Below, one piece after another: positions 34,237 to 64,000 of a stretch of DNA of 64,000 nucleotides. The number at the start of each line of letters is the position of its first letter. Position 1 is the first letter of the stretch. The stretch is from the NCBI GenBank assembly GCA_027923505.1, contig BROI01000005.1, positions 372,001 to 436,000 of the forward strand. Direction: 5' to 3'. This DNA is from Mayamaea pseudoterrestris. Lineage: Eukaryota. Below the pieces are notes generated by a model that was given only the letters and a program-made list of their open reading frames with translations, was not told the origin of the DNA and made no database searches. Made by a program: the position numbers and the translations under genes.

Positions 34237-34258
34237 GTTTCAGGATTGATTTTATGAG

Positions 34259-43632: not shown

Positions 43633-43654
43633 GTTTCAGGATTGATTTTATGAG

Positions 43655-45289: not shown

Positions 45290-45666
45290 ATGAATGACTG
45301 TGGCATCTGCCATTGTTCAATGACAGAGAGACAGCGCTCGATGGTAAATTCCTGCGAACACGAATTTTGCATCCGTTGCATTCGAAAATGGAGCGAGACA
45401 GAGGCAAAGAAGAAACAATGTCCTCGTTGTCCATTATGTCGGAGATGGTACACGATAATAATCAAGTGCAAGGAATTGTCGAACCGCGAACTATTCACAA
45501 TAAGAGTTTTCGTAGAGCAACCGTCGGCAAATACAGAATAGAATACTCTTGTTGCTACTATCGTTGTATCATAGCGTCTTTACAATATGTCCAGGGCGTG
45601 TCGCACGCGTATACTTACAAAGTTGGGCTTGCACATGCGCAGAAACGAGATTTCGTCAACGCCTAA
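45290..45666 (+). CDS. Small C3HC4 RING-finger protein (possible homopolymer frameshift near 45508)
   Basis: CGIC-x13-CEHEFCIRCIRKW-x11-CPLCR fits the RING-HC consensus. Confidence 0.75.
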
Positions 45667-45969
45667 CTCGAGCGAATCACTATCCGAGATTAAACGTTCC
45701 AACGGCTCGAGAAAAGCGCACGATTATCCAAACCTTCCGGATGCGTCGATGAGTCAATTGTCGGCGTGGCGTTCAGACAAATACTACCTATTATTCGCTG
45801 GAGCAGATGAATCGCGACTGATGCCTTTGCCTGCCGGCTGCGGAACTTTGTGGTGGATAAGGCTGGCATGTATGCGGTAACCAAGTTATGGTCACAAGTT
45901 GAAAATAGCCAACGAAGCGATAATGTCAATGCATACAAGTATGTGTCAAGTGTCAAGTTATCCAACCTA

Positions 45970-46100
45970 AGAAAATCGACTTTCAATATAAACGAGTTGG
46001 CGAATTCGACCGTTGAGTTTTCTCCAAATGAGGAAATCGCCTTTGGATATAAACTAATCGTCAATTGTACTCCTTCAGGAACCGACAGCTATGTAACGAG
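45970..46100 (+). promoter_or_regulatory. Conserved island-specific block found upstream of cargo genes (related copies at ~46880, ~47750 and ~62560-62710, and in duplicate copy 1)
   Basis: aaatcgactttcaatataaacgagttggcgaattcgaccgttgagttttctc...gaggaaatcgcctttggatataaac aligns with aaatttgctttccatataaacgagatgtcgaaatcgagcgttgagttttctt...gaggaaatcacctttcgaaataaac at 62581; regulatory role is inferred. Confidence 0.5.
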
Positions 46101-46365
46101 GCAATTACGATTGTCCATAAAATCTAATCGCCTGTAAATCCCAGACAAACAAACAACACTTACACCTGAAGACGGTTGATACCTGTGTCGTACCACGATT
46201 ACTTGCGACATTTAACGGTTACGATGTGGAGCTTGTACCAAGCTCCACCCGCAGTTCACACTAGCTGTAAGTCATTCGCCGATATTGTTGACTGATATAG
46301 AAGCCTTATAATTGGTGAACAATAATGATGATTGAATTGACAAAACAGGCAACAACAGATTAGAA

Positions 46366-46755
46366 GTGGCGATGGAAGAGTGGGAAGAGGAGATTGTCTG
46401 GAATGGAACTGGAGCTGAAGGACAAAAGTACATGCAACACGATATAGAAATTTTGTTTCTGACCTGTGATGACTGGATGCGGCACGGTGGACCTGCCGCC
46501 GATCTCGTGATGCTATTCAATGAGATTCGAGACCAAGTGTATGGAATGCCAGAGTATTTTGTAGATGCCGTGAACGAAATGCTAGACAAGACAGAGCCAG
46601 AATTGTATCGTCGCATAGTATGTGAAGGCAGGGAAGGCAGTCATTGGTACTTGCTCAGGGTCATGAACCGTTTCGAGTGTTCTCCATACAATTGGGACGG
46701 AAATGAGTGGCGTTTAGCTAAATATAATCCGGAATTGATGGAAGACTTCACCTAA
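46366..46755 (+). CDS. Small acidic protein, 'CDDWMR' family paralog 1
   Basis: 129-aa ORF (ATG at 46372); shares EIxWN, LxCDDWMRxGG and AVNEMLDxTEPELYRRIVCEG..GSHWYLL with its two neighbours. Confidence 0.75.
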   Translation: MAMEEWEEEIVWNGTGAEGQKYMQHDIEILFLTCDDWMRHGGPAADLVMLFNEIRDQVYGMPEYFVDAVNEMLDKTEPELYRRIVCEGREGSHWYLLRVMNRFECSPYNWDGNEWRLAKYNPELMEDFT

Positions 46756-47213
46756 ACATGTCACGTTAATCTTGAGCTCTATCAAACTAGTACGGAAGAT
46801 GTTATTTTCATAAGTTACTACTGCAACCATCATGACGGGTTCGCCCAATAACTCAGTAGGCCGACATTCACAAAATCACGAGTTGTCGAATTCGAGCGTC
46901 GCCTTTGGATATAAACTAATCGACGATTGTACTCCTTCAGGAACCGACAGCTATATAACGAGGCAATTACGATTGTCCATAAACTCTATTCGCCTGTAAA
47001 TCCCAGGCAAACAAACAACACTTACACCAGAAGATGGTTGATACCTGTGTCGTACCACGATTACTTACGACATTTAACAGTTACGATGTGGAGCTTGTGC
47101 CAAGCTCCACCCGCAGTTCACACTAGCTGTAGTTATTTCGCCAATATTGTTGACTTTCATAAAAGCCTCCTAATTGGTGAACAATAATTCTGACTGAAAC
47201 AATAGCAATCGTA

Positions 47214-47639
47214 ATGGCGAAGTCAGGAAGCAAAACAGGCAGCAACCGATTCGAGGAGACGATGGAAGAGTGGGAGGAGGAGATTATCTGGAATGGAGGT
47301 AAAGAACACAGGTCTTTCAAATACAATTTGGACATCTTGTTTCTGTCCTGTGATGACTGGATGCGGCACGGTGGACCTGCCGCCGATCTCGTGATGCTAT
47401 TCAATGAGATTCGAGACGAAGTGTATGGAATGCCAGGGGATCTTGAAGATGCCGTGAACGAAATGCTAGACAGGACAGAACCAGAATTGTATCGTCGCAT
47501 AGTATGTGAAGGCAGGGAAGGCAGTCATTGGTACTTGCTCAGGGTCATGAACCGTTTCGAGTGTTCTCCATACAATTGGGATGCAAATGAGTGGCGTTTA
47601 GCCAAATATAATCCGGAATTGATGGAAGACTTCACCTAA
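47214..47639 (+). CDS. Small acidic protein, 'CDDWMR' family paralog 2
   Basis: 141-aa ORF; C-terminal half nearly identical to paralog 1. Confidence 0.78.
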   Translation: MAKSGSKTGSNRFEETMEEWEEEIIWNGGKEHRSFKYNLDILFLSCDDWMRHGGPAADLVMLFNEIRDEVYGMPGDLEDAVNEMLDRTEPELYRRIVCEGREGSHWYLLRVMNRFECSPYNWDANEWRLAKYNPELMEDFT

Positions 47640-48066
47640 ACATGTCACGTTAATCTTGAGCTCTATCAAACTAGTATATAAGTTACTACTGCAACCATCA
47701 TGACGGGTTTGCCCAATAACTCAGTAGGCCGACATTCGCAAAATCCCGTGTTGTCGAATTCGAGCGTTGAGTTTTTTCGAGTTCGGGAAATCGCTTTCGA
47801 TATAAACTAATCGACAATTTTACTCCTTCGGGAACCGACAGCTATGTAACAAGGTATTTCGATCGTCCGTCAATTCTATTCGCCTGTATTTACCCCTACA
47901 AACAATTACAGCTGATCATCAAGCATGTATGCCTTTCGCCAATATTGTCGACGTTGTGTCCACGAAATATCCTGAAATAGGTAAACGATAACAAAGGAGT
48001 ATTGACTACTGATGCCATAAAATCGCAAGCATACACATAGTCACTCTTATCGCAACAACCGCTGTA

Positions 48067-48519
48067 ATGGTCAACGTAGATCCCAACGCACATGACACTC
48101 GACTCAGAAGATTCGAAGAGGCCTGCGAAGAAGCGGAAGACGAGATCGTTTGGAACGCCGGAAACTACTACAACGACGAAACAGAGTACGCGCTATTTGA
48201 CGATGCGCATAACTTGGACCTTATGCTTCTGGCCTGTGACGATTGGATGCGTAACGGTGGATCTGCAGCCCAACTCGTGGAGCTATACAATCACATCCGT
48301 TCCGAGATGCCTGGAATGGGAGATGATTTCGTTACCGCCGTAAACGAAATGTTAGACACGACAGAACCGGAACTGTATCGTCGCATTGTATGCGAAGGCA
48401 GCCAAGGCAGTCATTGGTATTTACTTCCAATCATGGCCGACAACGATATCAGCAGAGAGTACACGTGGGATGGAGACGAAGGTCGCTTGCTCAAGTACGA
48501 CATGGAATGGATACGTTAA
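48067..48519 (+). CDS. Small acidic protein, 'CDDWMR' family paralog 3 (more divergent)
   Basis: 150-aa ORF with the same motifs conserved despite divergence elsewhere. Confidence 0.78.
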   Translation: MVNVDPNAHDTRLRRFEEACEEAEDEIVWNAGNYYNDETEYALFDDAHNLDLMLLACDDWMRNGGSAAQLVELYNHIRSEMPGMGDDFVTAVNEMLDTTEPELYRRIVCEGSQGSHWYLLPIMADNDISREYTWDGDEGRLLKYDMEWIR

Positions 48520-48591
48520 TTGTTACTTGAATTATGCCGCTTTAAAGTAGTGTTAATCTATAATACTCAATATAGAATCACTCATATTATA

Positions 48592-49251
48592 TTATTCAGA
48601 TATGGACTTGATACGATTTCGTGCAGTGATCTCGGCGCGACTGCGATCGACCAAATCTATCTTACCCATTTCCTGGACAAACCTTTTCACTTCGACCGCA
48701 GAACGGAACTTGAATCCACATCTTGGTGAGATGTAATACTTGTCGACTTTTCTTGGTGCGTTGGCGCGAGGAACATTAAACTGTATCCACCCAGGTCCCC
48801 ATTGACGCAGACGATAGTCGGTTCTCAACGACGGTAACTGATACGACTTAGCATTTGCTTCCAGGTACTGAATTGCCTTTATATGAGGAGCATTGGCATC
48901 ACCAATAGGATTATCATACCTGCGAACAAATGTGAGTCTTTTTCCTTGTGTCTCCACCACAAAACCCATCCGGACACAACATAAGACTTCATGGTAGTTC
49001 ATATCATATTCCTTACGATGAGTTTGATATCTATCCCCAAGCAAATAATCAACAGTTTTAGAAGGATCCATCCTGACAGGCAAACGTAGCATCTTCTGTT
49101 TCAAAGAACGAACTCCACATCTTTCAATTGTCTCGAACAATCCTTCACTGGTCGTGTCCGAGAGAGCTTGGCAATACATCAAACTATTAACGTAGCCGTC
49201 GAATCTAAAACCGCACGCTTGTGGGTCTGATTTCATAATTTCCACTTTCAT
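48592..49251 (-). CDS. MBD-like domain protein 1
   Basis: WGPGWIQFNVPRANAPRKVDKYYISPRCGFKFRSAVEVKRFV fits the MBD consensus GW.....R......D.YY.SP.G.KFRS..EV..Y/F. Confidence 0.8.
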   Translation of the reverse strand: MKVEIMKSDPQACGFRFDGYVNSLMYCQALSDTTSEGLFETIERCGVRSLKQKMLRLPVRMDPSKTVDYLLGDRYQTHRKEYDMNYHEVLCCVRMGFVVETQGKRLTFVRRYDNPIGDANAPHIKAIQYLEANAKSYQLPSLRTDYRLRQWGPGWIQFNVPRANAPRKVDKYYISPRCGFKFRSAVEVKRFVQEMGKIDLVDRSRAEITARNRIKSISE

Positions 49252-49524
49252 AATGGATATGGCGTGTATACGAAACGCCCGTTAACGAGCATGTATTATG
49301 ACTAGACTCAGATTAATTCGCATTCACGCACTCAGACGTTCAAAGGCCTTGATATCAATATTTAGGCTAATACAATAAAATTCAACGGCAATTTTTCGGG
49401 CAAGTCTGCGACCGGAAACACCGGACGGGGAAACGACTCGTCGTCTTACATATCCTTAAGTAATGAACACATTCGTTCAACATATTCCAACGGCCCAAAT
49501 ATTAGTCGAGTGCAAGAATTTAGT

Positions 49525-50310
49525 CTATAGACAACAAGACAAAGCATGCTCCTCTATTTCCCAGTCACTTCCGTCGAATTGATCGAAAAGGCTTATAAAG
49601 TAGTTTACCTGATCAAGTGATATGAACATGAAACCAAATTCGGGAGAGAAGAAGTATTCGCGTCGTGGCATTGTATCATTGCCTGGTATTTGCAATCTTG
49701 TCCAACCGATACCCCATTCTTTACGACAACCAAGCAATCTAAGTGGAAATGTAATCGACCCACCCACTGAAGAGTTTTCGATTGTTGCTAGTCTTGGCCA
49801 ACGCAAATTGACAACCGGAACCTTGTAACGTCGAACAAAATAGTAAGTGTCGGAAGCAACATCCTGTATCATTTCGAACCCCATTGTCACATGGGTCGTC
49901 ATGTAGCGGGATTGTTTCGCGATAGCATCACGAAACCAAGGACTGCGGAAATCGCAAACTCTATCGATTACTTCGTCAATGCTATGGTCAGAATAATCCC
50001 CGGAGATTAGATCCAGTAGATACACTTCGAGACCAGTGCCCTTTCGTCGTAAATTATGCAATATTGTTAATGCGTACGTCCGAAAGACAATAGCATCAAC
50101 ACAGTGATCAGGCAACTCCTCCGCGTATTCATGTAGATGTGACCACAAATAAGCAGGACCACAGTATTTTAGATAACGAAAAAGGCTCAAACGACGCGAA
50201 CGGGCGACTGCAACATGATACAAGTACACTGTAATCCAACGCGGAAATGGTGCGTCATTCGGTGGAAACGGTCGTGTTTGAACGTCAATGTACATAATAC
50301 ACCAAAACAA
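49525..50310 (-). CDS. MBD-like domain protein 2 (divergent)
   Basis: WGIGWTRLQIP...EYFFSPEFGFMFISLDQVNYFI plus family motif HVTMGF...YFVRRY. Confidence 0.7.
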   Translation of the reverse strand: MFWCIMYIDVQTRPFPPNDAPFPRWITVYLYHVAVARSRRLSLFRYLKYCGPAYLWSHLHEYAEELPDHCVDAIVFRTYALTILHNLRRKGTGLEVYLLDLISGDYSDHSIDEVIDRVCDFRSPWFRDAIAKQSRYMTTHVTMGFEMIQDVASDTYYFVRRYKVPVVNLRWPRLATIENSSVGGSITFPLRLLGCRKEWGIGWTRLQIPGNDTMPRREYFFSPEFGFMFISLDQVNYFISLFDQFDGSDWEIEEHALSCCL

Positions 50311-50601
50311 ACAAACAGATCACTCGATTGCTTCATATGATGCTGAGATGCGTTTGATATATCTTGCACTCCTTCAAAACTTATGTCGCTCTAAACGATC
50401 CAATATATCTTACACGAATCCCACCATACGATATGTAACGACTGTACAAGACATCGGGTCGTGCTACTTTACTCATGTAAAAAATTTCGAATCCTTCAAA
50501 TTCAGTCATGTAGAAATACTAACATGTAGATATACGCATAAACAGGATCGAAACGATCCATTTGAATATATCTTCCTACTGTAATTTAAACGTTATGCAA
50601 C

Positions 50602-51381
50602 ATGGACTTACATCCCTTCTTCGGTCCTCCAGTACAATATTACAGACATGGAGAGCCACCCACCGAAATTCGAATGCTGCATGGCTGTAATCTATTAGAT
50701 GTATCGATAGAAGAGCTTCCAGGACCTGATGGAGCATACACACATTGTGCTAACGCATGTCTTTTCGATGCTGCCTTAGCAAAGGCACATTTCGCGAGTA
50801 CAAACGATTGGATTGTCAGTAAAGCCCATAAAATGATAAATTGGCTCATTCAAAATCATCCTATAGATCAGATAACAGAACAAGCATTGGAAGATTTGAT
50901 ATTCAGAGAGTCACCAACATATCATTCTTCGCCCTTTTTCGAGCGCTTTCAATTCATGCTAGATCACGCCAGGATGGGGTTCAAACTTTATTGGAATAGA
51001 GAGGCCTTACGACTTGTGTTAGTTCGATCATTCTGGGCGAAACCTACGGATCAGTTTTCACCCCACCCAGTCATTTCTCACATACGCAACGACGACGAAC
51101 AGACCTGTGAACTAAGTCCAACCATGAACGCGCTAGGCGAATGGCGATCTGATTGGGGAGTTGGATGGGTTACAACAACCATACGCTATCGTAACAGTTC
51201 TCACATACACATATTTTACGCGTCTCCTGAGCTAGGATACCTATTTAGCAGCCACAACGAAGTCGATGCATATATTGCAGTTGTGAAGAGAATTGCAGAC
51301 GAGGACGAGTTACCGGATATCGAAACATCAACACTGTTTGTCATGGCTCAAGGGGAAGTACCAGGAGCAGGAGCAGCCTAG
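50602..51381 (+). CDS. MBD-like domain protein 3 (divergent)
   Basis: WGVGWVTTTIR...IFYASPELGYLFSSHNEVDAYI plus HARMGF...LVLVRSF. Confidence 0.7.
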   Translation: MDLHPFFGPPVQYYRHGEPPTEIRMLHGCNLLDVSIEELPGPDGAYTHCANACLFDAALAKAHFASTNDWIVSKAHKMINWLIQNHPIDQITEQALEDLIFRESPTYHSSPFFERFQFMLDHARMGFKLYWNREALRLVLVRSFWAKPTDQFSPHPVISHIRNDDEQTCELSPTMNALGEWRSDWGVGWVTTTIRYRNSSHIHIFYASPELGYLFSSHNEVDAYIAVVKRIADEDELPDIETSTLFVMAQGEVPGAGAA

Positions 51382-51598
51382 TGGACCGATACGTATAAAT
51401 AAAATTTGCATTGGTAAATATAAGCGATACACCATCGCGACAACAAATCTTCACAATGTCACATGAGTACTTGGAGGACTCAGTCAACTGTTGTCGCCTT
51501 GCTCAGTCGCGATAAATCAATGATTGTTACCGACCCTTTCATAAAACGATCGCATCAATGCCCTAACATAAAATCAATTCTTTACATCAACAAGTAGC

Positions 51599-52135
51599 AT
51601 GCCATCGAAAGGATTCAAGCTCAAACGCGGAACTCCGGAAGTCGGAGACCGAGTTGCGATACACACCAAAAATCCTTCCGACGCGGCGTACAAAAACGGA
51701 GTAGTTGTTATTGTGGAACAGAGACCAAGTTACGAAGCTCATAACAACGACGACAACGAAGATATCGCTGTTCTTAACACTCACCTGGTCGTTGTTTTCG
51801 ACGACGACAAGCGCAAGGAAGATAGCGCATGGTTCAAATGGCACCCCAAGCTCGACCGCCTCATGGTACCTGACAAATCTGTTGATGTAAATCCTCAAGT
51901 AAGTCATTCAATGGGAAATACAATCAGCGGAAAACGCGTCGACGACCGTTGGATCACGACTGCTCATGACAAGAAGCTAAAGACATCGCACAATACTACG
52001 ATCAAAAATGAGATATCCCACGTCGCGCAATCGATCGGCGTTCGTACAGACGACAACGAAGCAAAAGCAAAGGATGAACCAGCAGGTTGGATGAATCGCA
52101 TGGTGTCAAAAGCGAGCAAATTCTTCCATGCTTGA
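51599..52135 (+). CDS. Hypothetical protein with a possible Tudor/SH3-like N-terminal barrel
   Basis: EVGDRVAI...YKNGVV...HLVVVFDDD pattern; possible donor site gtaagt at 51899. Confidence 0.5.
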   Translation: MPSKGFKLKRGTPEVGDRVAIHTKNPSDAAYKNGVVVIVEQRPSYEAHNNDDNEDIAVLNTHLVVVFDDDKRKEDSAWFKWHPKLDRLMVPDKSVDVNPQVSHSMGNTISGKRVDDRWITTAHDKKLKTSHNTTIKNEISHVAQSIGVRTDDNEAKAKDEPAGWMNRMVSKASKFFHA

Positions 52136-52259
52136 AGCAACACACAGAGGGTACTGTTTAGTAGTAGTCTATTAAACAGTCTAAGTATGAGCTTATAGAC
52201 GGGTTGACATCGATAGTTCGAAACTTCCTTTGCCTTTATAGGAACGATTATTCTATCAC

Positions 52260-53141
52260 TCAAGTGCCAGTGCGCTTGCGTTTGCCTTCCTTTTTCGAGT
52301 GACTACTGTCCATTGACTTTCGGAAATGTTGGAATCGAGCGTTACTTAGCGTAAGGGAAACCATGGTGTCCAAAATGTGGCGTCTCTCAAGGTTGCGTCT
52401 TTCTTTCTGACTTGCGTCCAGATTGCTATCTTCGATCAGGCATTGAACGAAGCGAATTCCACCATCCTGCATAAAACGCAGCATGTACTTCTCAATGTTC
52501 GGCAGCTCTACCGGTCGAGTATAACCATCTGTGTTTTGCACTTCCATCCGTCCCGAAAAGCAATCGAAAAAGAAGAATGGCAACATCGTCAATACTTGCA
52601 GGCGTGTTTTGTCATCCGGATACTTTTTCGCGCCGTGGAGTAAACCTTCTAGAGATGAATAGGGCAACAATGGCGGCAACATCGGTTGACGGTTTCGTAA
52701 AGTGACGTCAAACGTACGGCAACAAAAGGCCAAGCCACGCTGAAACACTTCCTCGTACTGGAAATAGAAGCCGATCAGGAAAAGCGTTACCTTGACGAGT
52801 TTGAAAATTGCCATCCCCTCTTCTTCCTCCATTGGATGAAGTTCGATCGCCCGGATTCTTTCGAGAATGTCATGTTCTGTTGTGTCCTTGCGAAAACAGC
52901 TCGTGTCCAGGATGTGGTCGAGAGTGAGTCCACTTGTTCCATGCACCACACTTGTCTGGGTCTCTGATTTTACCATGCTTCCTTTGGTTGACATTCGTGC
53001 TGCAGTTGTCGGTGTTGTGGTTGATAATATTGTGGTTGAACGTTGAACGTGAGTCTGGACTCGCGGTTTTGCTTGAAAGTCGCCGGGGCACGAAGTGCTG
53101 CTACGACGCGAATTCTTAGTGCTGCTACGACATGATTTCAA
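52260..53141 (-). CDS. Hypothetical helical protein, paralog of 53264-54013
   Basis: Shared TLDxILD, ILxRxxAIE, FKLxK, PYxSLEGLLHGA, MLPxFF and MLRFxxDGG; C-terminal NLS-like KKEGKRKR. Confidence 0.7.
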   Translation of the reverse strand: MKSCRSSTKNSRRSSTSCPGDFQAKPRVQTHVQRSTTILSTTTPTTAARMSTKGSMVKSETQTSVVHGTSGLTLDHILDTSCFRKDTTEHDILERIRAIELHPMEEEEGMAIFKLVKVTLFLIGFYFQYEEVFQRGLAFCCRTFDVTLRNRQPMLPPLLPYSSLEGLLHGAKKYPDDKTRLQVLTMLPFFFFDCFSGRMEVQNTDGYTRPVELPNIEKYMLRFMQDGGIRFVQCLIEDSNLDASQKERRNLERRHILDTMVSLTLSNARFQHFRKSMDSSHSKKEGKRKRTGT

Positions 53142-53263
53142 GTGATTTGAAGCGACAGAACGAAATTGTCTAGCATAGTTTATTAGTTAGGGGATTTTTA
53201 GCAATTTACAACATGTAGATTGGACTGAAGGGACATCAATAAGATTACTGAATATTTGCAACT

Positions 53264-54013
53264 TTATCTACCATTGGGGTGTTCATATTTATACACCAGC
53301 TTGGCTGGTTCCTCGTCAAATGTCCTATGCAATTCTGCCATGGTGTCTTTCAGCCCTGGCAGCAGGTCTCCGAAATGTTCGAACCGTGTATTGTCTTCAA
53401 TATATGAAACAATGGCCTCAATCAACCAGAGTCTGCCCGCTCTGGTATAAAAACGTTCACGTTGCTTCATTTTAAATGGTGGAACGTCTCGAAGTAAAAG
53501 GTTCGCTCCACCATCCAGCAGAAAACGCAACATGTCATCCTCTGCGGTCGGAAGCAATTCGTGATCCTTGTCCGGCATCGCATATTCGTATCTATATTCG
53601 TAGAAGAAGTAGGGCAACATCTTCAACACATTCACATGTGTTCCAAAATCCGAATGTCTGGCAGCACCGTGAAGTAGCCCTTCCAGCGATTGGTATGGCA
53701 ACGCTGGCTGCTTGTATCGAAAACATTCCTCGAAAACATAACTGCAGAATTGTACGCCGTTCTTGAACACTTTCTTATAGTGAAAGTAGTGGGTCGTCAG
53801 ATGTAAGGCCAGCTTTGTCAACTTGAATACTATCGCCTCTTTCCCATAGCATGTTTCCTCGAAAAGAGTCTCGATTGCCTGCAACCGCGCGAGTATGATC
53901 TCCTCTGGCGAGTCGTAATGGAAGCCACGTATGTCCAGAATGGCGTCAAGTGTGATATCTACTGATCCTTCTGACGAATCATCATCGCTGTCTTCTCCCC
54001 TATTCGCATTCAT
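53264..54013 (-). CDS. Hypothetical helical protein, paralog of 52260-53141
   Basis: 249-aa ORF with the same motifs. Confidence 0.72.
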   Translation of the reverse strand: MNANRGEDSDDDSSEGSVDITLDAILDIRGFHYDSPEEIILARLQAIETLFEETCYGKEAIVFKLTKLALHLTTHYFHYKKVFKNGVQFCSYVFEECFRYKQPALPYQSLEGLLHGAARHSDFGTHVNVLKMLPYFFYEYRYEYAMPDKDHELLPTAEDDMLRFLLDGGANLLLRDVPPFKMKQRERFYTRAGRLWLIEAIVSYIEDNTRFEHFGDLLPGLKDTMAELHRTFDEEPAKLVYKYEHPNGR

Positions 54014-54429
54014 TTTGTGTGCTAAACACTTCAGTAATGGAAAGAAGGGATTGTTGTTTGTTGGTCGCTCACTATCTCACGATATTTGTGAACGTCAAGT
54101 TTTCTGCGGATCATGATCGTCAACGCTTATCATCAACCCTAACTCGCTACTACACAATCGCGCTATAACGGTACGACAACAATCACGACTGGCACCTCTG
54201 CACGAGCCGGCGCCTTTTCGTCAACTAATTTGGCGACTATAATATAACTTCGTAGCGTATTCCCGCGACAATTATTCGTGCGAACCTCTTTACGTCAACA
54301 ACCGTTGAACACGAAGCAGGATTGATATGCTTCAACGCCACAAAGTAACATCGACCGTTGAAACAACGTTTAGCGAAAGCGTCAGAGAGTAATACTCAAT
54401 CACTTGCATGCCTCATGCAAATATAAGAC

Positions 54430-55297
54430 ATGGAGACCCACATACCTAAAATTCTGTTCCTTGGTGCGTCTTATACTGACATACGACCGTATCTGCAAGC
54501 CATTGACCCGATCGTATCGTGTGGTCAAAATCGGACACTTGAATTGGATCGCGTCATTGCCTGCGTCGAGTATAATCACATTTCGGAAATCGACGGCCGA
54601 GACCTGTCACGGATTGTCGAAACTGAGCGAGAATGTAACGTCGACGTATACACTGTATCCCTTGCGGAAGCAGCAAAATACAAAGAAAGTCGTCACTACA
54701 GCGGTAATTTTAACAACCATCGCTTTGTTTCAAGTTTAAGACGGCATTTTGTCAACGCAGCATTCGATCAGGTGACCTTGGATTATTATTGGCAACCAAA
54801 TTCAGCCATGCGGGAACACATGCGACCTGAGTTTTTCTCGAAAACACTACCCGAGTTAGCGATACATATGCTCAGTCCTCACGCATGTGTCTACCTTCCA
54901 TTCTGCGTTCATACGCTCAAGGAGACTCTGATACACAAGGCTGTACTGTCGCGACACTATACTGTAACATATCTACCAGAAAGCGAATTGGCAGAAGTAT
55001 TTATCTGGCGGGGTACACAAGCAATTGATGGCGACATAATGCAGGAGGTATTCGGAAAGAATAAATCACAGGTAACGAAACGGTAATGTTCAAGTCGAAA
55101 TTCACGCGACGTCTAACCATGTATTTGTTTATTCTCAGGAAGATAAATACTGCAAGATATCAAAGCAAGCAATTCGTCAGGACGACGAATACCCCGAATT
55201 ATCCAACAAGGATGTCATACATTTCTGTCAAACGATCGGCGACCTGAAATCAGTCCGTTTCATCAAACTAGAACGTCATGATACGGACCGCACTTGA
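54430..55297 (+). CDS. Hypothetical protein, possible Rossmann/methyltransferase-like fold (intron 55072-55138)
   Basis: Phase-0 GT-AG intron with ctaac branch site extends the ORF to TGA at 55297; ILFLGASY and FDQVTLDYYW segments. Confidence 0.65.
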
Positions 55298-55366
55298 GCG
55301 AATATATCATACGGAGTACTAATTTTAATTGTGTTATCTTTACATCGAATCGTATGTCTGTATTCG

Positions 55367-58300
55367 TTAATTTACAACACCTTCGAACAAATGCAACACC
55401 TGCTCGTCCGTGGCAAGAACCTTCGTACGAAAATATTCCATCATGTCGAGATACTCTTCGTTAGGTTCAAAATCAAGGTCAACAGGCACAGGTGCCATGA
55501 GAAACAGTCCCGCAAGTGACTTGACACGCGACAACGCAACATAAAACCAGTTCTTCATACCCTTATTTGCCCACTCGACAACAACCAACTCATCCAATGA
55601 TTTACCTTGCAGCTTATGCACTGTAGTCGCATGATTGATGACGACCGGAAACTGCTGAAGCTTTATTCCAACTTCTTTCCTCCGTTGAGACTCTAATCCG
55701 ACATCAAGAGGAAAACGCACCTTATAGTTCTTTCCTTGCGACTCCAAACGAAACCGACCTTGAAAGCGTCCACCGATCCACTTTAACTGTAAGTGGTCAA
55801 CGTCAGCAGCGTCGACCGAGTTGACCCAATATCCGTTAACCTGAATTGGCATTAATCTCACACCGGGACGAAGAACAACCTTGTCAAGTACCGCTGTTGT
55901 TCCATTGGCTATTCCATTCCGGACATCCTTGTTCTGGTTACTCATCAACGGACATCCTTTGTAGAGTTTCAAGAACGGATCGCATCTTGTGTCAGCTGAC
56001 TTGACTTCCGATTCACCGCATTTCTCGAACAATACTTTACGCTGTCCAAAGCACAACTTCTGCTTTGTGCTACTCCATACTGCACCAGCCTTAATAACAA
56101 CAGCAGACAATGGTATGGTTCCAGGCTCGGCGGTTGCATTTGAATGATAGGTAGCTAAATATCGCTCGTATAAATGCTGATTGATAGCATCACGCGACTT
56201 GTTGTAACACACCGCATATTGAATCATATTCGGATTCGATATCTGCAATGGACCCCTTTGAATGTTTTGAGGGTCGTAGCTTCCAACAACTCGAGAGTTT
56301 AACAGACATCTATGCTCATCGGAAAGTCCTGTTTTTCTAAGCGAATCCATAATCTCACCGTAAACTGGATCATTTACGAACCGCCATTTTCCTTCTAGTT
56401 CCACCATACAATTCACCCCCAACCACCAAGGTACGCATGTCTTTTCTCTGTACAAGCTATGTTTTCCGATAGGTTCAAGCTGACGGAAATCGCCCAGCAT
56501 GACAACTGGAAACTTGCCCATCAATGTATCTCGATCTTCCGTTAATTCTCTCAAATTGGAGTCCAAATCCTCAAGGAAGCTAGCATCGGCAAACGAAATC
56601 TCGTCAATTATGATCATTCTCGTGTCCTTAAACGATATTCTACTATCGTTGCTTATATCGCGTTTCTGTACGCCCTTGTGCATGGCGATCTGAAACTCGG
56701 AGTGACTAGTTGTACCTCCAATCTCACACGCTGCTGCACCCGTCAACGCAGTGAGTCTGATAGTGCCTTGAGTAAATTCATGATCAATCATCAAGCTAAA
56801 CGATTTTGCGTAGGTAATGAATTCTTTCAATATCGCCGACTTTCCTGCTCCAGCAGGACCAGTGACAAACAGCCGCAGAGGAGATCCATCGACCGATAGA
56901 GCTCGGCGTGCGAGCATCCTTAACTTGATAATATTCGTCTCGAAGTCTCCTCGCCGTGCATCATTTTCTTTCCAGTCATTTCGGGCCTCTTCCATGAAAC
57001 TCAAGACATATGTTGAAGCCAAAATATGAAAACACATCTGCTGTTTCTTGTCAAGTCCACAAGCTATGCTCCAATCAACGATAGATTTCCAGCTTCCACT
57101 AGCTATTACACCATTATTAATGGGTTCCACAATTAGTAATGGTGTAGCTTCGTTTTCGATATCCGCTGCATGATCAGTTGACAAATCATTGAATTTAGAA
57201 AACACGATGCTGTTCAGCTCCGATGTACACGAAACAAAACGCGTTGCATTCACTGTTGTGTGTTCAGGTTCAGAGACAGCAGATGTTGACGAGTCGAAAT
57301 GCAAAAGTGGTTCCGATTGAATGTCGCTCGAAAATGTTCCAGCTGTGCATTGCAAATTAATCTCCGGTGGCAATTCCTGACTGAAATTAAACGAGACAGG
57401 CTCTGCTTCCAAACCTTGAAACGCACTACTCGCGAGATATTGGTATAATTTGGCCATCTGCTGGTGACGTTGCATATTGTCGAATTCCTGATTGTCAATT
57501 TCTGAAGGACCAGATTCAGCGAGTTCAGTTTCCAAGGATACTAAATTAGGTGGAACCTGCGACGCATGCGAATTAGCCAAGGAAACTATATGATCAGCAA
57601 TTGTAAACATTTCGTCACTTATTTGTCCAGATTTCTTCGCTTCCAAGAACGTTGCTTGATAAGTACCAAGACTGGTCATGTCGCCTAAGGACCTGAAGGG
57701 CAGAAACAGAATCATAAATTTGAAACAATATTCCTCCTTGCTCTTAAAATCAGGGCTTGTTTCGTCGGGGTCAGTATGAAGAGACGTCAGAAAAGAAGAT
57801 GTATTACCCAACCAAGACCATGAAAATACAGGAACGGCCTTGACACCCTTACGCATAACAACCGACTGACACTCTGCCATCGGATGAGATTCGAGTAACT
57901 CGTATCGTTCCTCCATGACATCAAGTTTACTTGTTGCAACCACCTGGTATCCCTCGAAATAAGAATAGAGACATTCGTTCTCACATGTAACAGGTCTATG
58001 CAAATAATCAAGGGCTTTGTGGGTAATGTACGTTTTCTTGTTCCGTGTCTTGTAACTCATTATGACAAACTCGTTCTCCAACATCTTTTGCAGCCCATAA
58101 CATGGCAAATAGACGGCATCATGCGAATACTGAAAGCGCGACCCAACTAATGCAAGGTGCCGCGCCATAGGTGCAGCAACAATATGTGTACCAGTGTGGC
58201 TATAAATCCCCGCAAGCAAACGGCGAAATCCAACGCGATGGTCATCAGAAAGCGGATCCTCGAGTGTCTGATCGCGCTGAAGCATCCTGCATATTACCTG

Positions 58301-61141
58301 CGCGACTAACTGAAATGCCATCTGCTCTTCCTTTTGCTGGGACTTCACCTGATAACCAGTAACATACATTACAGCACGCCCGCTTATTCCAAAGGTTACA
58401 TTATTGTTGCAACACAGCAACTGAGTGATACCGTCATTGTTGCGGTTCATGAACACATCCCCAATATCACGCTTGGGTTGGAGAGTGAACATATACTCAA
58501 TACTTTGGAGCCCCATAAAATCCGACCAAACGTCAGGTTTTTCACAATACACAAAGTGGTCGCTAGAGGACACCGCCTCAGGAAGGTTAGCAAAACATTC
58601 ATCGCCTTTTTTGAAACATCTGGTTGTGTGTGTGGGAAAATGCGAGTTCACAGCAACATTAGCAGCGAAACGTCTCAGACATGACTCCTTCGACTCTTCG
58701 ACGTCTGAATACCAACTGAAATTCTTCTGATCTTCGTAACATTGATAGTTAAGACGCGGGACTGACTTTTCGGGGTAGTCAAACTTTGAATATCCTTCTC
58801 CATGTATATTGCTACCAAAATGGGTATCCAACGCACGCTTGATAATATCTTGCACCGTGAAAACAGTCTTGCACATTCGACAAGACGCAATAGTACCCTT
58901 GTGCGTAAGACATTGCTTCTTGTGACGCATTTGACGTATACAGTCATTGCCAACTGATTCGATTTCACCTTGTACATGACTACCTGTCCACAATCGCTTC
59001 CGCCTGCAGTCGCAATCGAAAACAGAATGCGAAGATAATTTCCCTCCGGTGCCAAAATCACCAAACAACGAAGCTGAACAAATTCCAGAGTAATATTCCA
59101 AAACATTGGAAGCAAGACGAGTAAATGACGCGGGTCCCGTTTTTTTCTGTAACGCCAACTGAACTGCAGGCCAGTGCTTAATAAACAATAGAAAATGGCC
59201 ATGAAGCGTTTTGCGGCCCTGTTCTTCCGTCGCCAAACACCACGCCACCATGTCTCCGAATATGCCGATTCCCTTACTCTTCTGATTGTCTATATCCCAA
59301 TTGAACAAATGACGAATAACAGCTTTCACAACGCGTTCATATTCCTCAGCGCACAATCCAGGATGCTCGTACCGAACATCCTGACGCATCCGAAAGTTGT
59401 CGATAATCTGTCGGTCAGTAAGGCTCGCCACGTTGACTGTGCTGTCGGGATTATAATTTTCTTTGCCGAGGGCGTAAACAACAATGCGATAGTTGCGCTG
59501 GTCGTCCGGTGAAACCGTTAGAAAGATTGCGGGCATCCCGAATTTCATGAGGAACGAGAAATATACTTTTCGAGCCTCCTGCGACGCTTCATTTGTATGC
59601 GGCAAGTTCTCACATACCGCTGTTATACTGCGCAGAAAACGATGCTCTGTAGTACTTCTTCGGCTTACACCATGCTGTTGCTGACAGTCTGTAATCGCCT
59701 TTTCAAACTGATCGTGGGACATGGTACCATATTTGTCTGCAATGGAACGACCATCTGTTTGTTTTATATTACACTGAATCACAACACTTTTAAAGATGAT
59801 CTCCTTGAGAATAAGATTTTCGATAACCAAAACAAACATAGGTCCATGAAAGACAGATTTGCGATGCCGAAGATACTTCTTGTAAACATCGATACGATTT
59901 CGACTGCATTGATTCTTGTTTCCTTTTCTCTTCTTCAATTTCAAAACGGCCGGGTCATCAGCTAGACCGGTAAATCCATACGGAAACTGCAAAATGAAGG
60001 CATCTGCAATGGTGTCCCCCTGAAAGTCCATGAATTTATCTGCAGAAGGCCGAGCGTGCATCTGCGCCTCGAACTTCCCTCCATTATGTTCCAATACGTA
60101 TCTGCGGAATTCATCCTGTGTCTGAAACGTTCCATTCATGCGACCAGGAAGTGTGACATCAGGAAAGACATGGGTGATACTCATTTCGTTCTCCACATCA
60201 ACGCTTACACTCCTTTGCCATTCCACCTTATCTTCGACAATTCTCGGTATTGGCAAGCTGGCAGGGTCGGGTATATGAAGGTCCCTGTAGCGGAAATTGT
60301 TCACCTTCAACCAATTCCAAGCATTTATCACCTTTTCCGGATCAACACGGGTCTTTTGTAATACTTTGGCTTTCTGCGTCGATGTAAAGGGTCCGCACAA
60401 GACAACAAGTAGTCTCCCATGCAAGCCAGAATCCTGTATTTGCATCATATTCGCAACGTTCGTCTCAGGATGATTTTTTAGTAGTGTAGTCCATCCTTTT
60501 ATTTGTTTGTGACAGCCTCCAAAGAACACCCATGTTTGACAATGAAGTTTGGCTTTGCATACCAATGCCAATTCAACTTCGTTAAGACACTTGAGCTCTT
60601 CAGGTTCATGACCGATAACGTAGCCGTTGGCAATTGACTGCCGCGGCGGACGGCGTCTGTCTGCATGCTTCACTTCTGCGTTAGTCTCAAGGTCAGCCAG
60701 ACACTTACGACATATGCTTATTTCATTCCTTTTGTTCACAAAAGCATCAGGTGATAGAACATAATCCTTTAACGTAGGATGAGTTGCAGTGTATTCATTT
60801 AACAACTCTATTGGATAAACATCCGAAAGATCAGTCTTCCGCATCTTAGCATTCGAACAAAGAGACGCAATTCTTGCAACTGATACCATTTTATGCCAAT
60901 ATGCTTCATCTGGTATTCCGTCACAAACGCAGCAGAAAACTGCATGAAGAGTTTTAGTCTGGGGCTCTTTAATTACATAACTTTCGAGCTCCTGAGAAGC
61001 CCTGGCTAAAAGTTCGCGTTTGGTCTCCGTCGATGGTATTGCGAGACGCATTATTGCAAAAAGATGTAAAACGAATGTGATATGCATGACACAGACAAAG
61101 ACATATGTATTATGATAACACAGCCTTCTACAAATAAACAT
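55367..61141 (-). CDS. Helitron RepHel transposase (HUH Rep endonuclease plus Pif1-family SF1 helicase), intact; likely start ATG at 61051
   Basis: Rep motifs IFLTVSP, EEQGRKTLHGHFLLF (HUH) and YVTGYQVK (two Tyr); helicase motifs GPAGAGKS, IIIDEISF, LGDFRQLEPI, QFPVVINHATTVHKLQGKSL and YVALSRVKSL; Cys-rich N-terminus with 'SIANG..IG..PEEL..L..VE..LV'. Confidence 0.93.
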   Translation of the reverse strand: MFICRRLCYHNTYVFVCVMHITFVLHLFAIMRLAIPSTETKRELLARASQELESYVIKEPQTKTLHAVFCCVCDGIPDEAYWHKMVSVARIASLCSNAKMRKTDLSDVYPIELLNEYTATHPTLKDYVLSPDAFVNKRNEISICRKCLADLETNAEVKHADRRRPPRQSIANGYVIGHEPEELKCLNEVELALVCKAKLHCQTWVFFGGCHKQIKGWTTLLKNHPETNVANMMQIQDSGLHGRLLVVLCGPFTSTQKAKVLQKTRVDPEKVINAWNWLKVNNFRYRDLHIPDPASLPIPRIVEDKVEWQRSVSVDVENEMSITHVFPDVTLPGRMNGTFQTQDEFRRYVLEHNGGKFEAQMHARPSADKFMDFQGDTIADAFILQFPYGFTGLADDPAVLKLKKRKGNKNQCSRNRIDVYKKYLRHRKSVFHGPMFVLVIENLILKEIIFKSVVIQCNIKQTDGRSIADKYGTMSHDQFEKAITDCQQQHGVSRRSTTEHRFLRSITAVCENLPHTNEASQEARKVYFSFLMKFGMPAIFLTVSPDDQRNYRIVVYALGKENYNPDSTVNVASLTDRQIIDNFRMRQDVRYEHPGLCAEEYERVVKAVIRHLFNWDIDNQKSKGIGIFGDMVAWCLATEEQGRKTLHGHFLLFIKHWPAVQLALQKKTGPASFTRLASNVLEYYSGICSASLFGDFGTGGKLSSHSVFDCDCRRKRLWTGSHVQGEIESVGNDCIRQMRHKKQCLTHKGTIASCRMCKTVFTVQDIIKRALDTHFGSNIHGEGYSKFDYPEKSVPRLNYQCYEDQKNFSWYSDVEESKESCLRRFAANVAVNSHFPTHTTRCFKKGDECFANLPEAVSSSDHFVYCEKPDVWSDFMGLQSIEYMFTLQPKRDIGDVFMNRNNDGITQLLCCNNNVTFGISGRAVMYVTGYQVKSQQKEEQMAFQLVAQVICRMLQRDQTLEDPLSDDHRVGFRRLLAGIYSHTGTHIVAAPMARHLALVGSRFQYSHDAVYLPCYGLQKMLENEFVIMSYKTRNKKTYITHKALDYLHRPVTCENECLYSYFEGYQVVATSKLDVMEERYELLESHPMAECQSVVMRKGVKAVPVFSWSWLGNTSSFLTSLHTDPDETSPDFKSKEEYCFKFMILFLPFRSLGDMTSLGTYQATFLEAKKSGQISDEMFTIADHIVSLANSHASQVPPNLVSLETELAESGPSEIDNQEFDNMQRHQQMAKLYQYLASSAFQGLEAEPVSFNFSQELPPEINLQCTAGTFSSDIQSEPLLHFDSSTSAVSEPEHTTVNATRFVSCTSELNSIVFSKFNDLSTDHAADIENEATPLLIVEPINNGVIASGSWKSIVDWSIACGLDKKQQMCFHILASTYVLSFMEEARNDWKENDARRGDFETNIIKLRMLARRALSVDGSPLRLFVTGPAGAGKSAILKEFITYAKSFSLMIDHEFTQGTIRLTALTGAAACEIGGTTSHSEFQIAMHKGVQKRDISNDSRISFKDTRMIIIDEISFADASFLEDLDSNLRELTEDRDTLMGKFPVVMLGDFRQLEPIGKHSLYREKTCVPWWLGVNCMVELEGKWRFVNDPVYGEIMDSLRKTGLSDEHRCLLNSRVVGSYDPQNIQRGPLQISNPNMIQYAVCYNKSRDAINQHLYERYLATYHSNATAEPGTIPLSAVVIKAGAVWSSTKQKLCFGQRKVLFEKCGESEVKSADTRCDPFLKLYKGCPLMSNQNKDVRNGIANGTTAVLDKVVLRPGVRLMPIQVNGYWVNSVDAADVDHLQLKWIGGRFQGRFRLESQGKNYKVRFPLDVGLESQRRKEVGIKLQQFPVVINHATTVHKLQGKSLDELVVVEWANKGMKNWFYVALSRVKSLAGLFLMAPVPVDLDFEPNEEYLDMMEYFRTKVLATDEQVLHLFEGVVN

Positions 61142-61158
61142 ATCGAGCGTTGAGGCAA

Positions 61159-61237
61159 AATTTCAAATTTCGCCAGCACGTACCAGCAAAACGATTCCTT
61201 CTCGTTAGGCGACGCGAGCGTGCTGGCGTTTGAAATT
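61159..61237. other. Inverted repeat / stem-loop immediately upstream of RepHel
   Basis: aatttcaaa(ttt)cgccagcacg at 61159-61180 pairs with cgtgctggcgtttgaaatt at 61219-61237. Confidence 0.75.
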
Positions 61238-61448
61238 GCTGTATAGCGGAATTTATCTATTTCGAATCCGTCAAACTACTTTTCGTGTCGAACGACAAGT
61301 GCTTTTCAGTTCATACGCTAACAAAAGGGGTTGTTCCGCACACGGTCGGCACAGTGTGGCCACAGGTCCAACACGATACACAAATCGCGAAGCCAAAAAC
61401 AACCGTCTACAAGCTAAATAACAATAGAAACACATACTATGTTGCCGA

Positions 61449-62402
61449 TTACTTAACTACGTCGACCCATTGATATCTTTTACGTCGAGCAATACCCTCC
61501 TTTTGTTGACGGCGATCTATCGCAATATGTCTGCGTGCCTCGAACTCCGACCTTGCAGGATTACGTTCCCCGCCGTACCGATGGAACAACGTCAAATATC
61601 TCTTCACTTCCGGAATGGATCGAAACTTGAAACCAAAATGATTTGTGTAATAGTAAGTGTCGAAACGAGCTTGCCTTTCCCCATTTCGCGAGACGCGCTG
61701 AACACGAGACTGTATCCATCCTCTATCCCAAGATATTTTCCTGCAATTGACCGGAGCGAAGAACTTACTTCCACACGATTCTCGCAAGCGGCTGTCCATA
61801 ATTACTCGCAGCGTGCGATATCTCTCTTTACACTCACCATCCGGAAGATAACGAAAGAATCGAGATAAATACGGCTTTTCGAATTCCTTATCGACCGTAT
61901 ACCCCATGCGCAGAAGTTCGTGAGCTCGCTCGTAAACAGCGTCAAACCGACTTCGAAACCTGTTATCCACAATACAGAATATGAAGTCCGTCAATGCATC
62001 CCCGCCTTCCTGGAACACTGATTCGTTGTCATTCGCAAGCTTCACCACATCGTTTACACCCGATGATCGAATTATATCGACGAGGGAGTGATTCAATACT
62101 TTAGATTCAGCCAACAACACTATAAACCATTCCAACAGAAGAGGCAACGCTTCAGTCTCTTCAGCCGAAACCGAAGTGCTATCCCATGAGTGACCTCTTT
62201 CAAGAAGCATCAGAGATGATCCGATCAAGCAAACTAGACGAGCCAAATGAATCGAGATGCGAAGGTAAACGGAGATGTCAAGATCGCTATCGCAGTTTAT
62301 CAAAGGACAACGATCGCTATCGCAGTTTATCAAAGGAGGACGACTGATGTTGATGGATCCGTTAGCGACCCGGCAGGAATCGCGCGCCGGGTGGTCGTCC
62401 AT
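61449..62402 (-). CDS. MBD-like domain protein 4
   Basis: WDRGWIQSRVQRVSRNGERQARFDTYYYTNHFGFKFRSIPEVKRYL; LLRMGY...LSRFF; true start may be downstream of 62402. Confidence 0.8.
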   Translation of the reverse strand: MDDHPARDSCRVANGSINISRPPLINCDSDRCPLINCDSDLDISVYLRISIHLARLVCLIGSSLMLLERGHSWDSTSVSAEETEALPLLLEWFIVLLAESKVLNHSLVDIIRSSGVNDVVKLANDNESVFQEGGDALTDFIFCIVDNRFRSRFDAVYERAHELLRMGYTVDKEFEKPYLSRFFRYLPDGECKERYRTLRVIMDSRLRESCGSKFFAPVNCRKISWDRGWIQSRVQRVSRNGERQARFDTYYYTNHFGFKFRSIPEVKRYLTLFHRYGGERNPARSEFEARRHIAIDRRQQKEGIARRKRYQWVDVVK

Positions 62403-62696
62403 TATTTCGCTGAAGCCGAATCACGTCAAGCAACTCAACGGTCGCACGATATCGGGAATCGCCATAAATGGCGACGTCTGTATAACAACGCTAAGTCACT
62501 AAGAACAAAGCCTGTAAATAGCCAACGATACATCATCGATGACAATGTCTACAATTATGCGTTGAGTTTTTCCGATCACGAAATTTGCTTTCCATATAAA
62601 CGAGATGTCGAAATCGAGCGTTGAGTTTTCTTGAACAGAGGAAATCACCTTTCGAAATAAACGAACTGACGATTTCTACCCTTCGGAAACGAAGAG

Positions 62697-63359
62697 ATGC
62701 TGTTACGAGTTGCACAAGTGCCAGCTTCAAAATGTTGTGCACACGGAAAATTACCCAACATTGCAATTAACTTCATGTACTGTGTTGCAGTGTCCAAAGT
62801 GTACAACATGTCGCTGATACAAGCGATTGCGAGACACGGTTCCCAAAGTCTATGCAAAATGATTCAAACATTGACTTGCTTGAGCACAGAACATCTCACC
62901 CAAGCTGTAATGAATAACGTAAACGACAACCTCCACAAGGACTTCAAGGAAACATGGACGCGAGTGGAGTCTCACGTGCAAATGGGTTTTGGAATGGAAC
63001 TATCTAACAATGAATACATGTTGTTTCGAACTCACATGCACGACAATGCGTCAGACACAAATCACTATGGAACTCTTCTTCGGTCGTTAGAGTCGACGAA
63101 AGATTGGGAAAAACTCAAATACTCCTGTCCCATAAACAACAAAACGATGAATTGGAAAATTGGCTGGATACAAATACGCAAACGACGACGCGCGCAGTAC
63201 GGCAGGAAACATAGATACGACAAGTTTTACTATTCACCGAAATTTGGATACAAATTCCGTTCGATCGTCGACGTCAAAGCGTTTGCAACCCATGTCGAAG
63301 AAGCGCAATCAAGTTTTGGCAACAAATCCGAAACAGTGGCTCAAAATAAAGTGCGATAA
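62697..63359 (+). CDS. MBD-like domain protein 5
   Basis: WKIGWIQIRKRRRAQYGRKHRYDKFYYSPKFGYKFRSIVDVKAF; HVQMGF...MLFRTH; true start probably a downstream Met. Confidence 0.8.
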   Translation: MLLRVAQVPASKCCAHGKLPNIAINFMYCVAVSKVYNMSLIQAIARHGSQSLCKMIQTLTCLSTEHLTQAVMNNVNDNLHKDFKETWTRVESHVQMGFGMELSNNEYMLFRTHMHDNASDTNHYGTLLRSLESTKDWEKLKYSCPINNKTMNWKIGWIQIRKRRRAQYGRKHRYDKFYYSPKFGYKFRSIVDVKAFATHVEEAQSSFGNKSETVAQNKVR

Positions 63360-64000
63360 TGGATAACAATCGGCGACATTTTCACATAACACGTCATTGA
63401 AACATGGTAGCAAACATTGTATAATTAGAATCAGTATCCATGTCAGGTTATTCAATATCCATCTTTTTGAACTTCAGAAAACATGGATCGAACTGCCCAA
63501 GGATGAGCCCTCCGTGATCTTGTAACAACCGAAATATACGAAGCCAAGCTATACGGTCAACCAAAGTGAATTGTGTTGTGTACAAACGTCAGAAAAGGAA
63601 AACACAGTAGGAGCAACCAACAACATGACATCGAAACGATACTTCAATGTAGCATGCCTGGCCACAGAACGATGCAGGTGATCGGTACGAGGTCACTTAA
63701 ATGCTGCTTGAACTCCTTCCACTTTGGTAATTAGACCAATTGCGTCTGGATTGATATTAAAGAGCAAAAAACGGAATGAGAACGTGCTTATTGCAATCAA
63801 TCGAGACGAATTGTAAACTCAGTGCTTTGCACAACTCCCCAAGCATTCTCATTTGATGAGCTCATTCATTTCAAGAACTCTCCAGCATTCAACCAAATTT
63901 GGTAAACAGTTCCATTACACTATAGAACAAGTGTATGAACGGTATCAACATGCCGAGAACAGACTGTAGCAAGCAGTCGATGAAACGAATACACGGGCGC

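Follow-up and report, generated by a model that had tools for sequence, protein, structure and literature searches.

We saw that in a 64,000-nucleotide (nt) stretch of the genome of the diatom Mayamaea pseudoterrestris (contig BROI01000005.1, positions 372,001 to 436,000 of the forward strand; this whole stretch is called the window, and its own numbering is used throughout) an intact RepHel gene of a Helitron is flanked by five open reading frames (ORFs) of one family. The family is lineage-restricted and fast-diverging; it combines a helical N-terminal domain (N-domain) without known relatives with a C-terminal methyl-CpG-binding domain (MBD) fold. The account that we favour, with a probability of about 0.45, is a Helitron-associated MBD family that tethers to methylated repeat chromatin; that the family is truly associated with the Helitron has about even odds. 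The genes in question are the following (aa, amino acids).

48592-49251, minus strand: MBD1, 219 aa; predicted helical N-domain and MBD core at aa 151-195 (48667-48801), R..DKYY..KFRS kept.
49525-50295, minus strand: MBD2, 256 aa; putative degenerate MBD core at about 49582-49716, with FIS for FRS and EYFF for DxYY.
50602-51381, plus strand: MBD3, 259 aa; putative degenerate MBD core at 51154-51285, with FSS for FRS.
55367-61141, minus strand: RepHel, intact, 1924 aa; DUF6570, Helitron_like_N and PIF1 by Pfam.
61449-62402, minus strand: MBD4, 317 aa; predicted MBD core at aa 225-273 (61584-61730).
62697-63359, plus strand: MBD5, 220 aa; predicted MBD core at aa 153-200 (63153-63296).

An earlier note on this DNA had described five divergent ORFs that share a C-terminal motif and lie on both sides of an intact RepHel, and this description proved correct in each respect. 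All five ORFs are present, intact and intronless, with pairwise identity of 19-24%; MBD1-3 are on one side of RepHel, MBD4 and MBD5 on the other. Their alignment has 11 invariant columns, including W..GW, G..F.S and V of the C-terminal motif, and there is also an upstream block with M-G-[FY]. Profiles made of four members recovered the fifth among 891 six-frame ORFs of the window at E-values from 8e-16 to 3.5e-27 (7.7e-16 for MBD2 and 8.4e-17 for MBD3); in the same set of ORFs no further family match was seen beyond a frameshifted MBD1 copy considered below. By profile comparison the family is unrelated to two neighbouring families, H and F, and a word-based homologue search with MBD1 gave no match.

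The C-terminal domain of the family is, as predicted from both sequence and model, an MBD; this identity, proposed in the earlier note, follows from the agreement of three analyses. First, the Pfam profile PF01429, which the note had named as a check, returned MBD1 (E 5.3e-8, 32.8 bits) and MBD4 (E 3.3e-5, 23.9 bits) above its cut-off of 21 bits and MBD5 (E 5.5e-4, 19.9 bits) slightly below it; MBD2 and MBD3 had no match at E<=1 and are tied to the family by the family profile alone (E ~1e-16), so that the check came out in favour of part of the family. Second, when the five-gene profile was compared with solved structures, all 21 matches at E<=1 were MBD proteins, with Arabidopsis AtMBD6 the best (4.6e-5); searched singly, MBD2 and MBD3 matched no solved MBD. 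Third, in the AlphaFold model of MBD1, the only family member modelled for fold comparison (mean pLDDT 70), a helical N-domain is followed by a C-domain of two strands (156-162 and 165-174) and a helix (185-197). Foldseek, also suggested in the note, put AtMBD6 on top for this model (7fef; probability 1.00, root-mean-square deviation (rmsd) 1.7 over 44 columns, 43% identity), and the solved proteins MBD4, AtMBD5, MBD2 and MeCP2 came next, with E-values that are weak for this small domain. A Foldseek-independent search (VIA) of 48,161 representative chains likewise had 7fef first (Z 5.0, rmsd 1.6, 46 residues aligned). For the N-domain of MBD1 there was no convincing fold match among these 48,161 chains (best non-MBD rows with Z<=4.3), and none of the five proteins matched a Pfam family besides MBD.

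In MeCP2/MBD2, two arginine fingers, an aspartate and a tyrosine are the residues contacting 5mCpG. Aligned to AtMBD6, MBD1, MBD4 and MBD5 keep R..D-[KT]-[YF]-Y together with K-F-R-S; the set is absent from MBD2, which has E-Y-F-F and F-I-S, and from MBD3, which has I-H-I-F-Y and F-S-S. As the contact residues are kept in three members and lost in two, MBD1, MBD4 and MBD5 look reader-competent, while MBD2 and MBD3 do not. The note's proposal of five methyl-CpG readers therefore goes too far, as MBD2 and MBD3 are without the Arg/Asp/Tyr set.

The RepHel between these genes carries HGH at aa 647-649, YVTGY at 926-930 (the YxxxY motif), Walker A at 1428 and Walker B at 1510, and its alignment to relatives, among them the four-member profile A5, runs over the full length. 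Judged by motifs and domains, it has both parts that the protein of an autonomous Helitron requires, a Rep domain of the HUH/two-Tyr type and a helicase of the PIF1 type. A word search of a 5.8-billion-protein collection found three full-length relatives, the closest only 28% identical; a metagenome scan yielded RepHels up to 47% identical to that of the window. MBD4, in the same orientation as RepHel, lies upstream of it at a distance of 307 nt, and MBD5 is divergent from RepHel.

The closest link between the MBD genes and the Helitron is a fusion found outside the window. In a profile search of 1.84 billion representatives there were 273 matches at E<=1e-3 (6 sequences and 10 names were checked among the best-scoring ones); the named matches checked were plant multi-MBD proteins, and the sole close relative was P0001 (GKY95155.1; E 1.4e-42), a 753-aa hypothetical protein of M. 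pseudoterrestris itself, matching positions 75-225 of the family profile in one stretch. Residues 1-599 of P0001 correspond to window positions 61051-59252, the RepHel N-terminus (90.7% identity), and residues 595-749 to positions 50001-49537, the MBD2 C-terminus (79.4% identity). The two halves keep the order and strand that their counterparts, 9.2 kb apart, have in the window; the RepHel part ends 18 residues before the HUH motif. The host proteins of the window are in the same public source, on another contig than P0001, and a search with the TGT of the window gave no separate protein from M. pseudoterrestris, the next named diatoms being 64-72% identical. We therefore take P0001 to mark a second locus of this species, most likely within the same genome. 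In two supplementary files of PMC9724779 there was no mention of the P0001 locus tag, of Helitron or of methyl-CpG.

Read depth pointed to additional copies as well. Run sets X1 and X2, independent DNA sets from two studies, gave contigs covering 45000-64000, the range on which reads were placed, with few substitutions; X3 resembles noisy low-depth DNA, and X4 covers just 53345-54088 and 63406-63947 of this range. In both X1 and X2 two segments stood at ~2x baseline depth: 58948-60215, which encodes RepHel residues ~310-730, and 61484-62117 in the 3' half of MBD4 (within the MBD4 ORF, about 61547-61938). Therefore, that genome has further copies of just these parts of RepHel and MBD4.

One could also think of a lineage-specific MBD cluster of the host, grown by local duplication and serving as methyl-DNA readers, for instance in transposon silencing like AtMBD5/6, into which the Helitron inserted by chance. 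We regard this as a real possibility, if well short of even; in the same event, and with similar reserve, the second locus would be a segmental duplication followed by a deletion. It is hard to reconcile with such a cluster that no orthologue exists elsewhere among the 1.84 billion representatives except P0001, and that this sole relative itself begins with a piece of RepHel. The base composition also argues against it: GC content at third codon positions is 0.39-0.44 in MBD1-3 and RepHel, the minimum in the window, versus 0.45-0.63 in host genes.

Two more genes of the neighbourhood are of the kind found next to RepHels, and this again speaks against a host cluster.

33511-34236 (second copy 42907-43632), minus strand: D241, member of a RepHel-adjacent accessory family (hidden Markov model E 5e-20).
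43995-44654, plus strand: E219, orphan ORF whose only relative found is upstream of RepHel in one related locus (L042; 33% over 122 aa).

The relatives come from a comparison set of 80 metagenomic loci with related RepHels (546,044 nt, 6,463 ORFs). The D241 family consists of 200-290-aa proteins with a basic N-terminus, present in loci L002-L009, L013, L015-L018, L020-L022, L033, L053, L065 and others; it had no Pfam match, no match to a solved sequence and no fold match (for a model with pLDDT 61). Helitrons of this clade usually have such a D241-like gene, as yet uncharacterised, for a partner. The L042 relative of E219 has a weak dUTPase_2/MazG-like match. As both D241 and E219 belong to RepHel-adjacent families, the whole gene island in which they lie with the MBD genes looks Helitron-related.

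In these loci the region upstream of RepHel is used in a regular way: 21 of the 31 loci having at least 1 kb of upstream sequence carry a conserved gene, of the D241 family, divergently upstream of RepHel. This region is also modular, since the RepHels of L003 and L036 are 88% identical and those of L017 and L036 95% identical, yet the upstream genes are unrelated. By position, MBD4 and MBD5 appear to sit in this variable accessory slot. We also observed a Tet-like 2OG-Fe(II) oxygenase ORF (L037:5669-6757, also in L038; E 1.5e-5, 25.6 bits at a cut-off of 27) and a SET-domain ORF (L056:7817-8506, also in L058; E 1.3e-6); both are near distant RepHels (26% identity) and may be part of the elements or of host flanks.

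A number of observations weigh against the association of the MBD family with the Helitron, and several of them are what the host cluster would lead one to expect. None of the 80 related loci, with downstream flanks mostly <1.5 kb, had an MBD-like ORF at E<=0.1, and none of 93 accessory ORFs scanned in them matched Pfam MBD; therefore, the MBD association is not a property of the clade. Similarity among the relatives stops 51-357 nt past the RepHel stop, and their contigs mostly end 0.2-1.5 kb from it; with a 3'-end so near to the RepHel stop, a canonical element would exclude MBD1-3. Helitron termini (a 5' TC and a 3' hairpin with CTRR, or the variant ends of Helitron2) were not found among the short repeats of the island, by eye in its flanks or by aligning the 3' regions of relatives, which do not align to the window; no stretch of at least 16 nt is shared within the island outside known duplications, bar one 16-mer of chance size. 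One X1 contig at baseline depth spans 49735-59311, with most of the RepHel ORF; therefore, the element has not been recently amplified. Insertion polymorphism was not seen either, X1 and X2 having the same structure with breaks at the same places. Observed to expected ratios of CpG are 1.03-1.37 in the island; CpG is thus not depleted, and the deamination footprint expected of long-term methylation is missing. As to P0001, its junction could be a predicted intron or gene-model join, and its locus could stem from segmental duplication rather than transposition. Finally, an exact look-up in the genome's public protein set found none of the five MBD ORFs, versus three of five other ORFs tried.

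For the host cluster in particular, one may count the absence of MBD-like ORFs from the related loci, the lack of termini, the region being single copy at near identity with the same structure in X1 and X2, and the fact that the nearest solved MBDs, AtMBD6 and AtMBD5, are host readers. The MBD genes are, moreover, on both strands and interspersed with the unrelated orphan families G, H and I. The claim of the earlier note that the element carries MBD genes is accordingly left divided: the P0001 fusion speaks for it, and the missing termini, the missing second full copy and the negative result in related loci speak against it.

The absence of the five ORFs from the protein set would also suit non-functional passengers, i.e. 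captured or duplicated copies in decay with no present role, and so would the degenerate binding residues of MBD2 and MBD3. A variant pointing the same way, 62229 G>T in X1 and X3 (not in X2), turns codon 58 of MBD4, counted in its long ORF, into a stop. We consider decay very unlikely, as all five ORFs stay open over 219-317 codons despite ~80% divergence, with blocks of the fold core and of the N-domain conserved. The stop in MBD4 is upstream of Met65, and the family-like part begins after this residue; for this reason Met65 may be the true start. Among the variants listed inside the MBD ORFs (window versus X1/X2) 11 are synonymous and 6 non-synonymous, a weak hint of constraint, and among the indels listed none falls inside the five ORFs in X1 or X2.

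If the MBD genes do belong to the Helitron, the events may be imagined as follows. MBD4 and MBD5 would occupy the accessory-gene slot upstream of RepHel, and MBD1-3 would probably have been picked up or carried along via 3' read-through. A copy of one such unit would have reached the second locus and there lost, by deletion, what lay between the RepHel N-terminus and the MBD2-like gene, so that the two were fused. With the contact residues kept, MBD1, MBD4 and MBD5 would bind symmetrically methylated CpG, and at methylated repeat chromatin the shared N-domain would tether host factors or the machinery of the element; MBD2 and MBD3 may act without reading methylation, for example as partners or regulators. 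The likeliest use would be to direct integration towards 'safe' DNA that is silenced already, a role also proposed for the CopiaMBD elements of arthropods and for chromodomain retrotransposons, with competition with host readers against silencing as a second option. We judge tethering and integration bias likeliest because of the CopiaMBD precedent and because, according to excerpts of PMC12344493, cytosine methylation in studied diatoms is largely confined to transposons.

The second option, an idea of the earlier note, can be stated more strongly: MBD decoys encoded by the element, analogous to VANC or to the MBD7 complex, could lift silencing by masking methylated element DNA or by taking the place of host readers. 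Plant MBD proteins opposing silencing do exist (MBD7; excerpts of PMC5462541 and PMC5339849), competition with host readers is discussed as a possibility for CopiaMBD (excerpts of PMC6673714), and the proteins described here are small and without a recognisable repressor-recruiting domain (no Pfam match outside the MBD, no fold match of the N-domain). We still find decoys rather improbable: the contact residues are gone from two of the five proteins, MBD2 and MBD3; copies of the element are few, unlike what successful escape from silencing predicts; and the authors of PMC6673714, in the excerpts, note that a decoy would be non-specific and would need high expression.

A bolder version of the favoured account would be that a lineage of diatom Helitrons took up methyl-CpG readers and let them diverge into a family of its own, kept as separate accessory genes and making up a working methylome-reading module. 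We think this unlikely, and equally doubtful is the division of labour that would go with it, in which MBD1, MBD4 and MBD5 guide or protect the element and MBD2, MBD3 and the chimera of the RepHel N-terminus with an MBD are regulators. If true, a methylome-reading module would be known for the first time from a DNA transposon, and a transposon-borne reader family would be seen under arms-race-like divergence. More generally, should the MBD genes be part of the Helitron, co-option of host epigenome readers would extend from long terminal repeat retrotransposons to rolling-circle DNA transposons, and diatoms would offer a testable system for the use or evasion of CpG methylation by a transposon. 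The putatively 'reader-competent' MBD1, MBD4 and MBD5, the putatively 'reader-dead' MBD2 and MBD3 and the natural transposase-MBD chimera make convenient material for it. Should the two be unlinked, the MBD proteins would still be new as a set, restricted to one species and equipped with a novel N-domain.

The host part of the window, 1-30,400, has ordinary genes, including TGT, SHMT, a KDEL receptor and an MgtE-type transporter, with GC 0.46-0.55 and a GpC ratio of 1.12-1.37. The remainder and its duplicated part are as follows.

30439-64000, no strand: island of orphan genes that stands out in base composition, with GC 0.43-0.46 and GpC ratio 0.85-1.14.
39238-39679, minus strand: frameshifted MBD1 copy in three frame pieces, matched by the family profile; within the first of two 9.4-kb units.
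62565-62692, plus strand: non-coding element of ~105-130 nt immediately before the MBD5 start codon; ~79% similar to elements upstream of F-family ORFs.

The island consists of densely packed intronless ORFs; it contains all five MBD genes, RepHel, D241 and E219, and the end of the window falls inside it. Its ORFs matched no Pfam family other than those reported here for the MBD genes and RepHel, and for the island gene H249 an atlas look-up gave only leads below 0.9. Positions 30439-39848 are repeated head to tail as 39846-49301 at 97.15% identity. The two units of ~9.4 kb differ by 164 substitutions (just 79 of them transitions) and 88 small indels, which cluster at the unit ends (58-75 per kb versus 3-4 per kb mid-unit), and different ORFs are broken in each copy. 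Over stretches identical in both units, contigs had single-copy depth (32.4 versus 37.4 in X1, 123.7 versus 125 in X2; the first unit is outside the range on which reads were placed). As the differences have this pattern and depth is at baseline rather than double, the tandem duplication is probably an artefact of the assembly, and so is the broken sixth MBD copy within it.

The F family comprises three tandem ORFs (46372-46755, 47214-47639 and 48067-48519; period ~880 nt), with broken copies at 36.6-39.1 kb; these are orphan proteins of 127-150 aa with a conserved core, CDDWMR.GG...EPELYRRIVCEG, and no Pfam match. Counterparts of the element at MBD5 are found at 45980-46085, 46883-46968 and 47774-47859, as elements located 290-390 nt upstream of each F-family ORF. 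From its position and similarity, the shared element may be a common promoter or leader. Between MBD3 and RepHel there are two paralogous orphan ORFs, 52260-52994 and 53264-54013 (both minus strand, 37% identical); the second is annotated in the public protein set and is the only part of 48-63.4 kb with X4 contig cover. At 63907-63947 (~40 nt) several of the X1-X4 contigs diverge on both sides; this stretch is therefore repeated elsewhere in the genome and could be the edge of another repeat. In the host part, 8526-10031 is the sole CpG-poor stretch of the window (observed to expected ratio 0.48); it holds a Ser/Pro-rich ORF (8830-9975, minus strand) of ~144-nt tandem repeats and has a local GC of 0.55. 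A perfect 110-nt tandem duplication (12432-12541 and 12542-12651) runs into the start of the MgtE-like ORF (12620-13720).

Among known systems, the C-terminal domain comes closest, by sequence as well as by structure, to the MBDs of Arabidopsis MBD5 and MBD6 (7fef, 7d8k, 7feo). AtMBD5 and AtMBD6 are host methyl-DNA readers that act in transposon silencing. MBD7, also from Arabidopsis, is a reader opposing silencing (excerpts of PMC5462541 and PMC5339849). Like the diatom proteins, AtMBD5 and AtMBD6 are small and have a single MBD; in contrast, the Arabidopsis proteins are encoded by host genes conserved across plants, the diatom N-domain matches neither them nor a solved fold, and no partner domains are shared.

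From maize and bat work, Helitrons are known for gene capture and for 3' read-through transduction, the captures being mostly gene fragments. Such a process would explain both the genes downstream of RepHel and a second locus with RepHel and a downstream gene; however, the diatom ORFs are whole and form a family, and no termini were found that would prove capture. Transposons carrying genes that act on host DNA methylation are also not new. TET/JBP genes occur in KDZ transposons, and VANDAL elements of Arabidopsis have the anti-silencing proteins VANC; DNMT-bearing retrotransposons have been described (excerpts of PMC5890265). In all of these the folds and activities differ from those of the diatom MBD family.

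The closest parallel is CopiaMBD, a case of MBD capture by arthropod Copia retrotransposons, for which methyl-CpG binding was shown by DAP-seq (de Mendoza, Pflueger and Lister 2019; PMC6673714, in excerpts, here and below). There, as here, an MBD of preserved methyl-CpG-binding character (judged here by residues only) is found with a mobile element and is proposed to read the methylome of the host, mainly for guiding integration (PMC6673714). In CopiaMBD, found in animals, the MBD is a domain of the Copia polyprotein beside the integrase (PMC6673714), whereas the window has five separate divergent genes with an N-domain of their own beside a rolling-circle DNA transposon, a linkage that is partly supported. 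The window has no fusion of the CopiaMBD type within one ORF; in P0001 the MBD is fused to a catalytically truncated RepHel ending before the HUH motif. Among the papers listed by the literature searches, none, as judged by titles and the starts of abstracts, describes Helitron-borne MBD genes, in line with what the earlier note had said of a Helitron with an MBD gene family. Capture of an MBD by a transposon is thus already known; what is new here is separate, multiplied and highly diverged MBD genes beside a rolling-circle transposon of a diatom.

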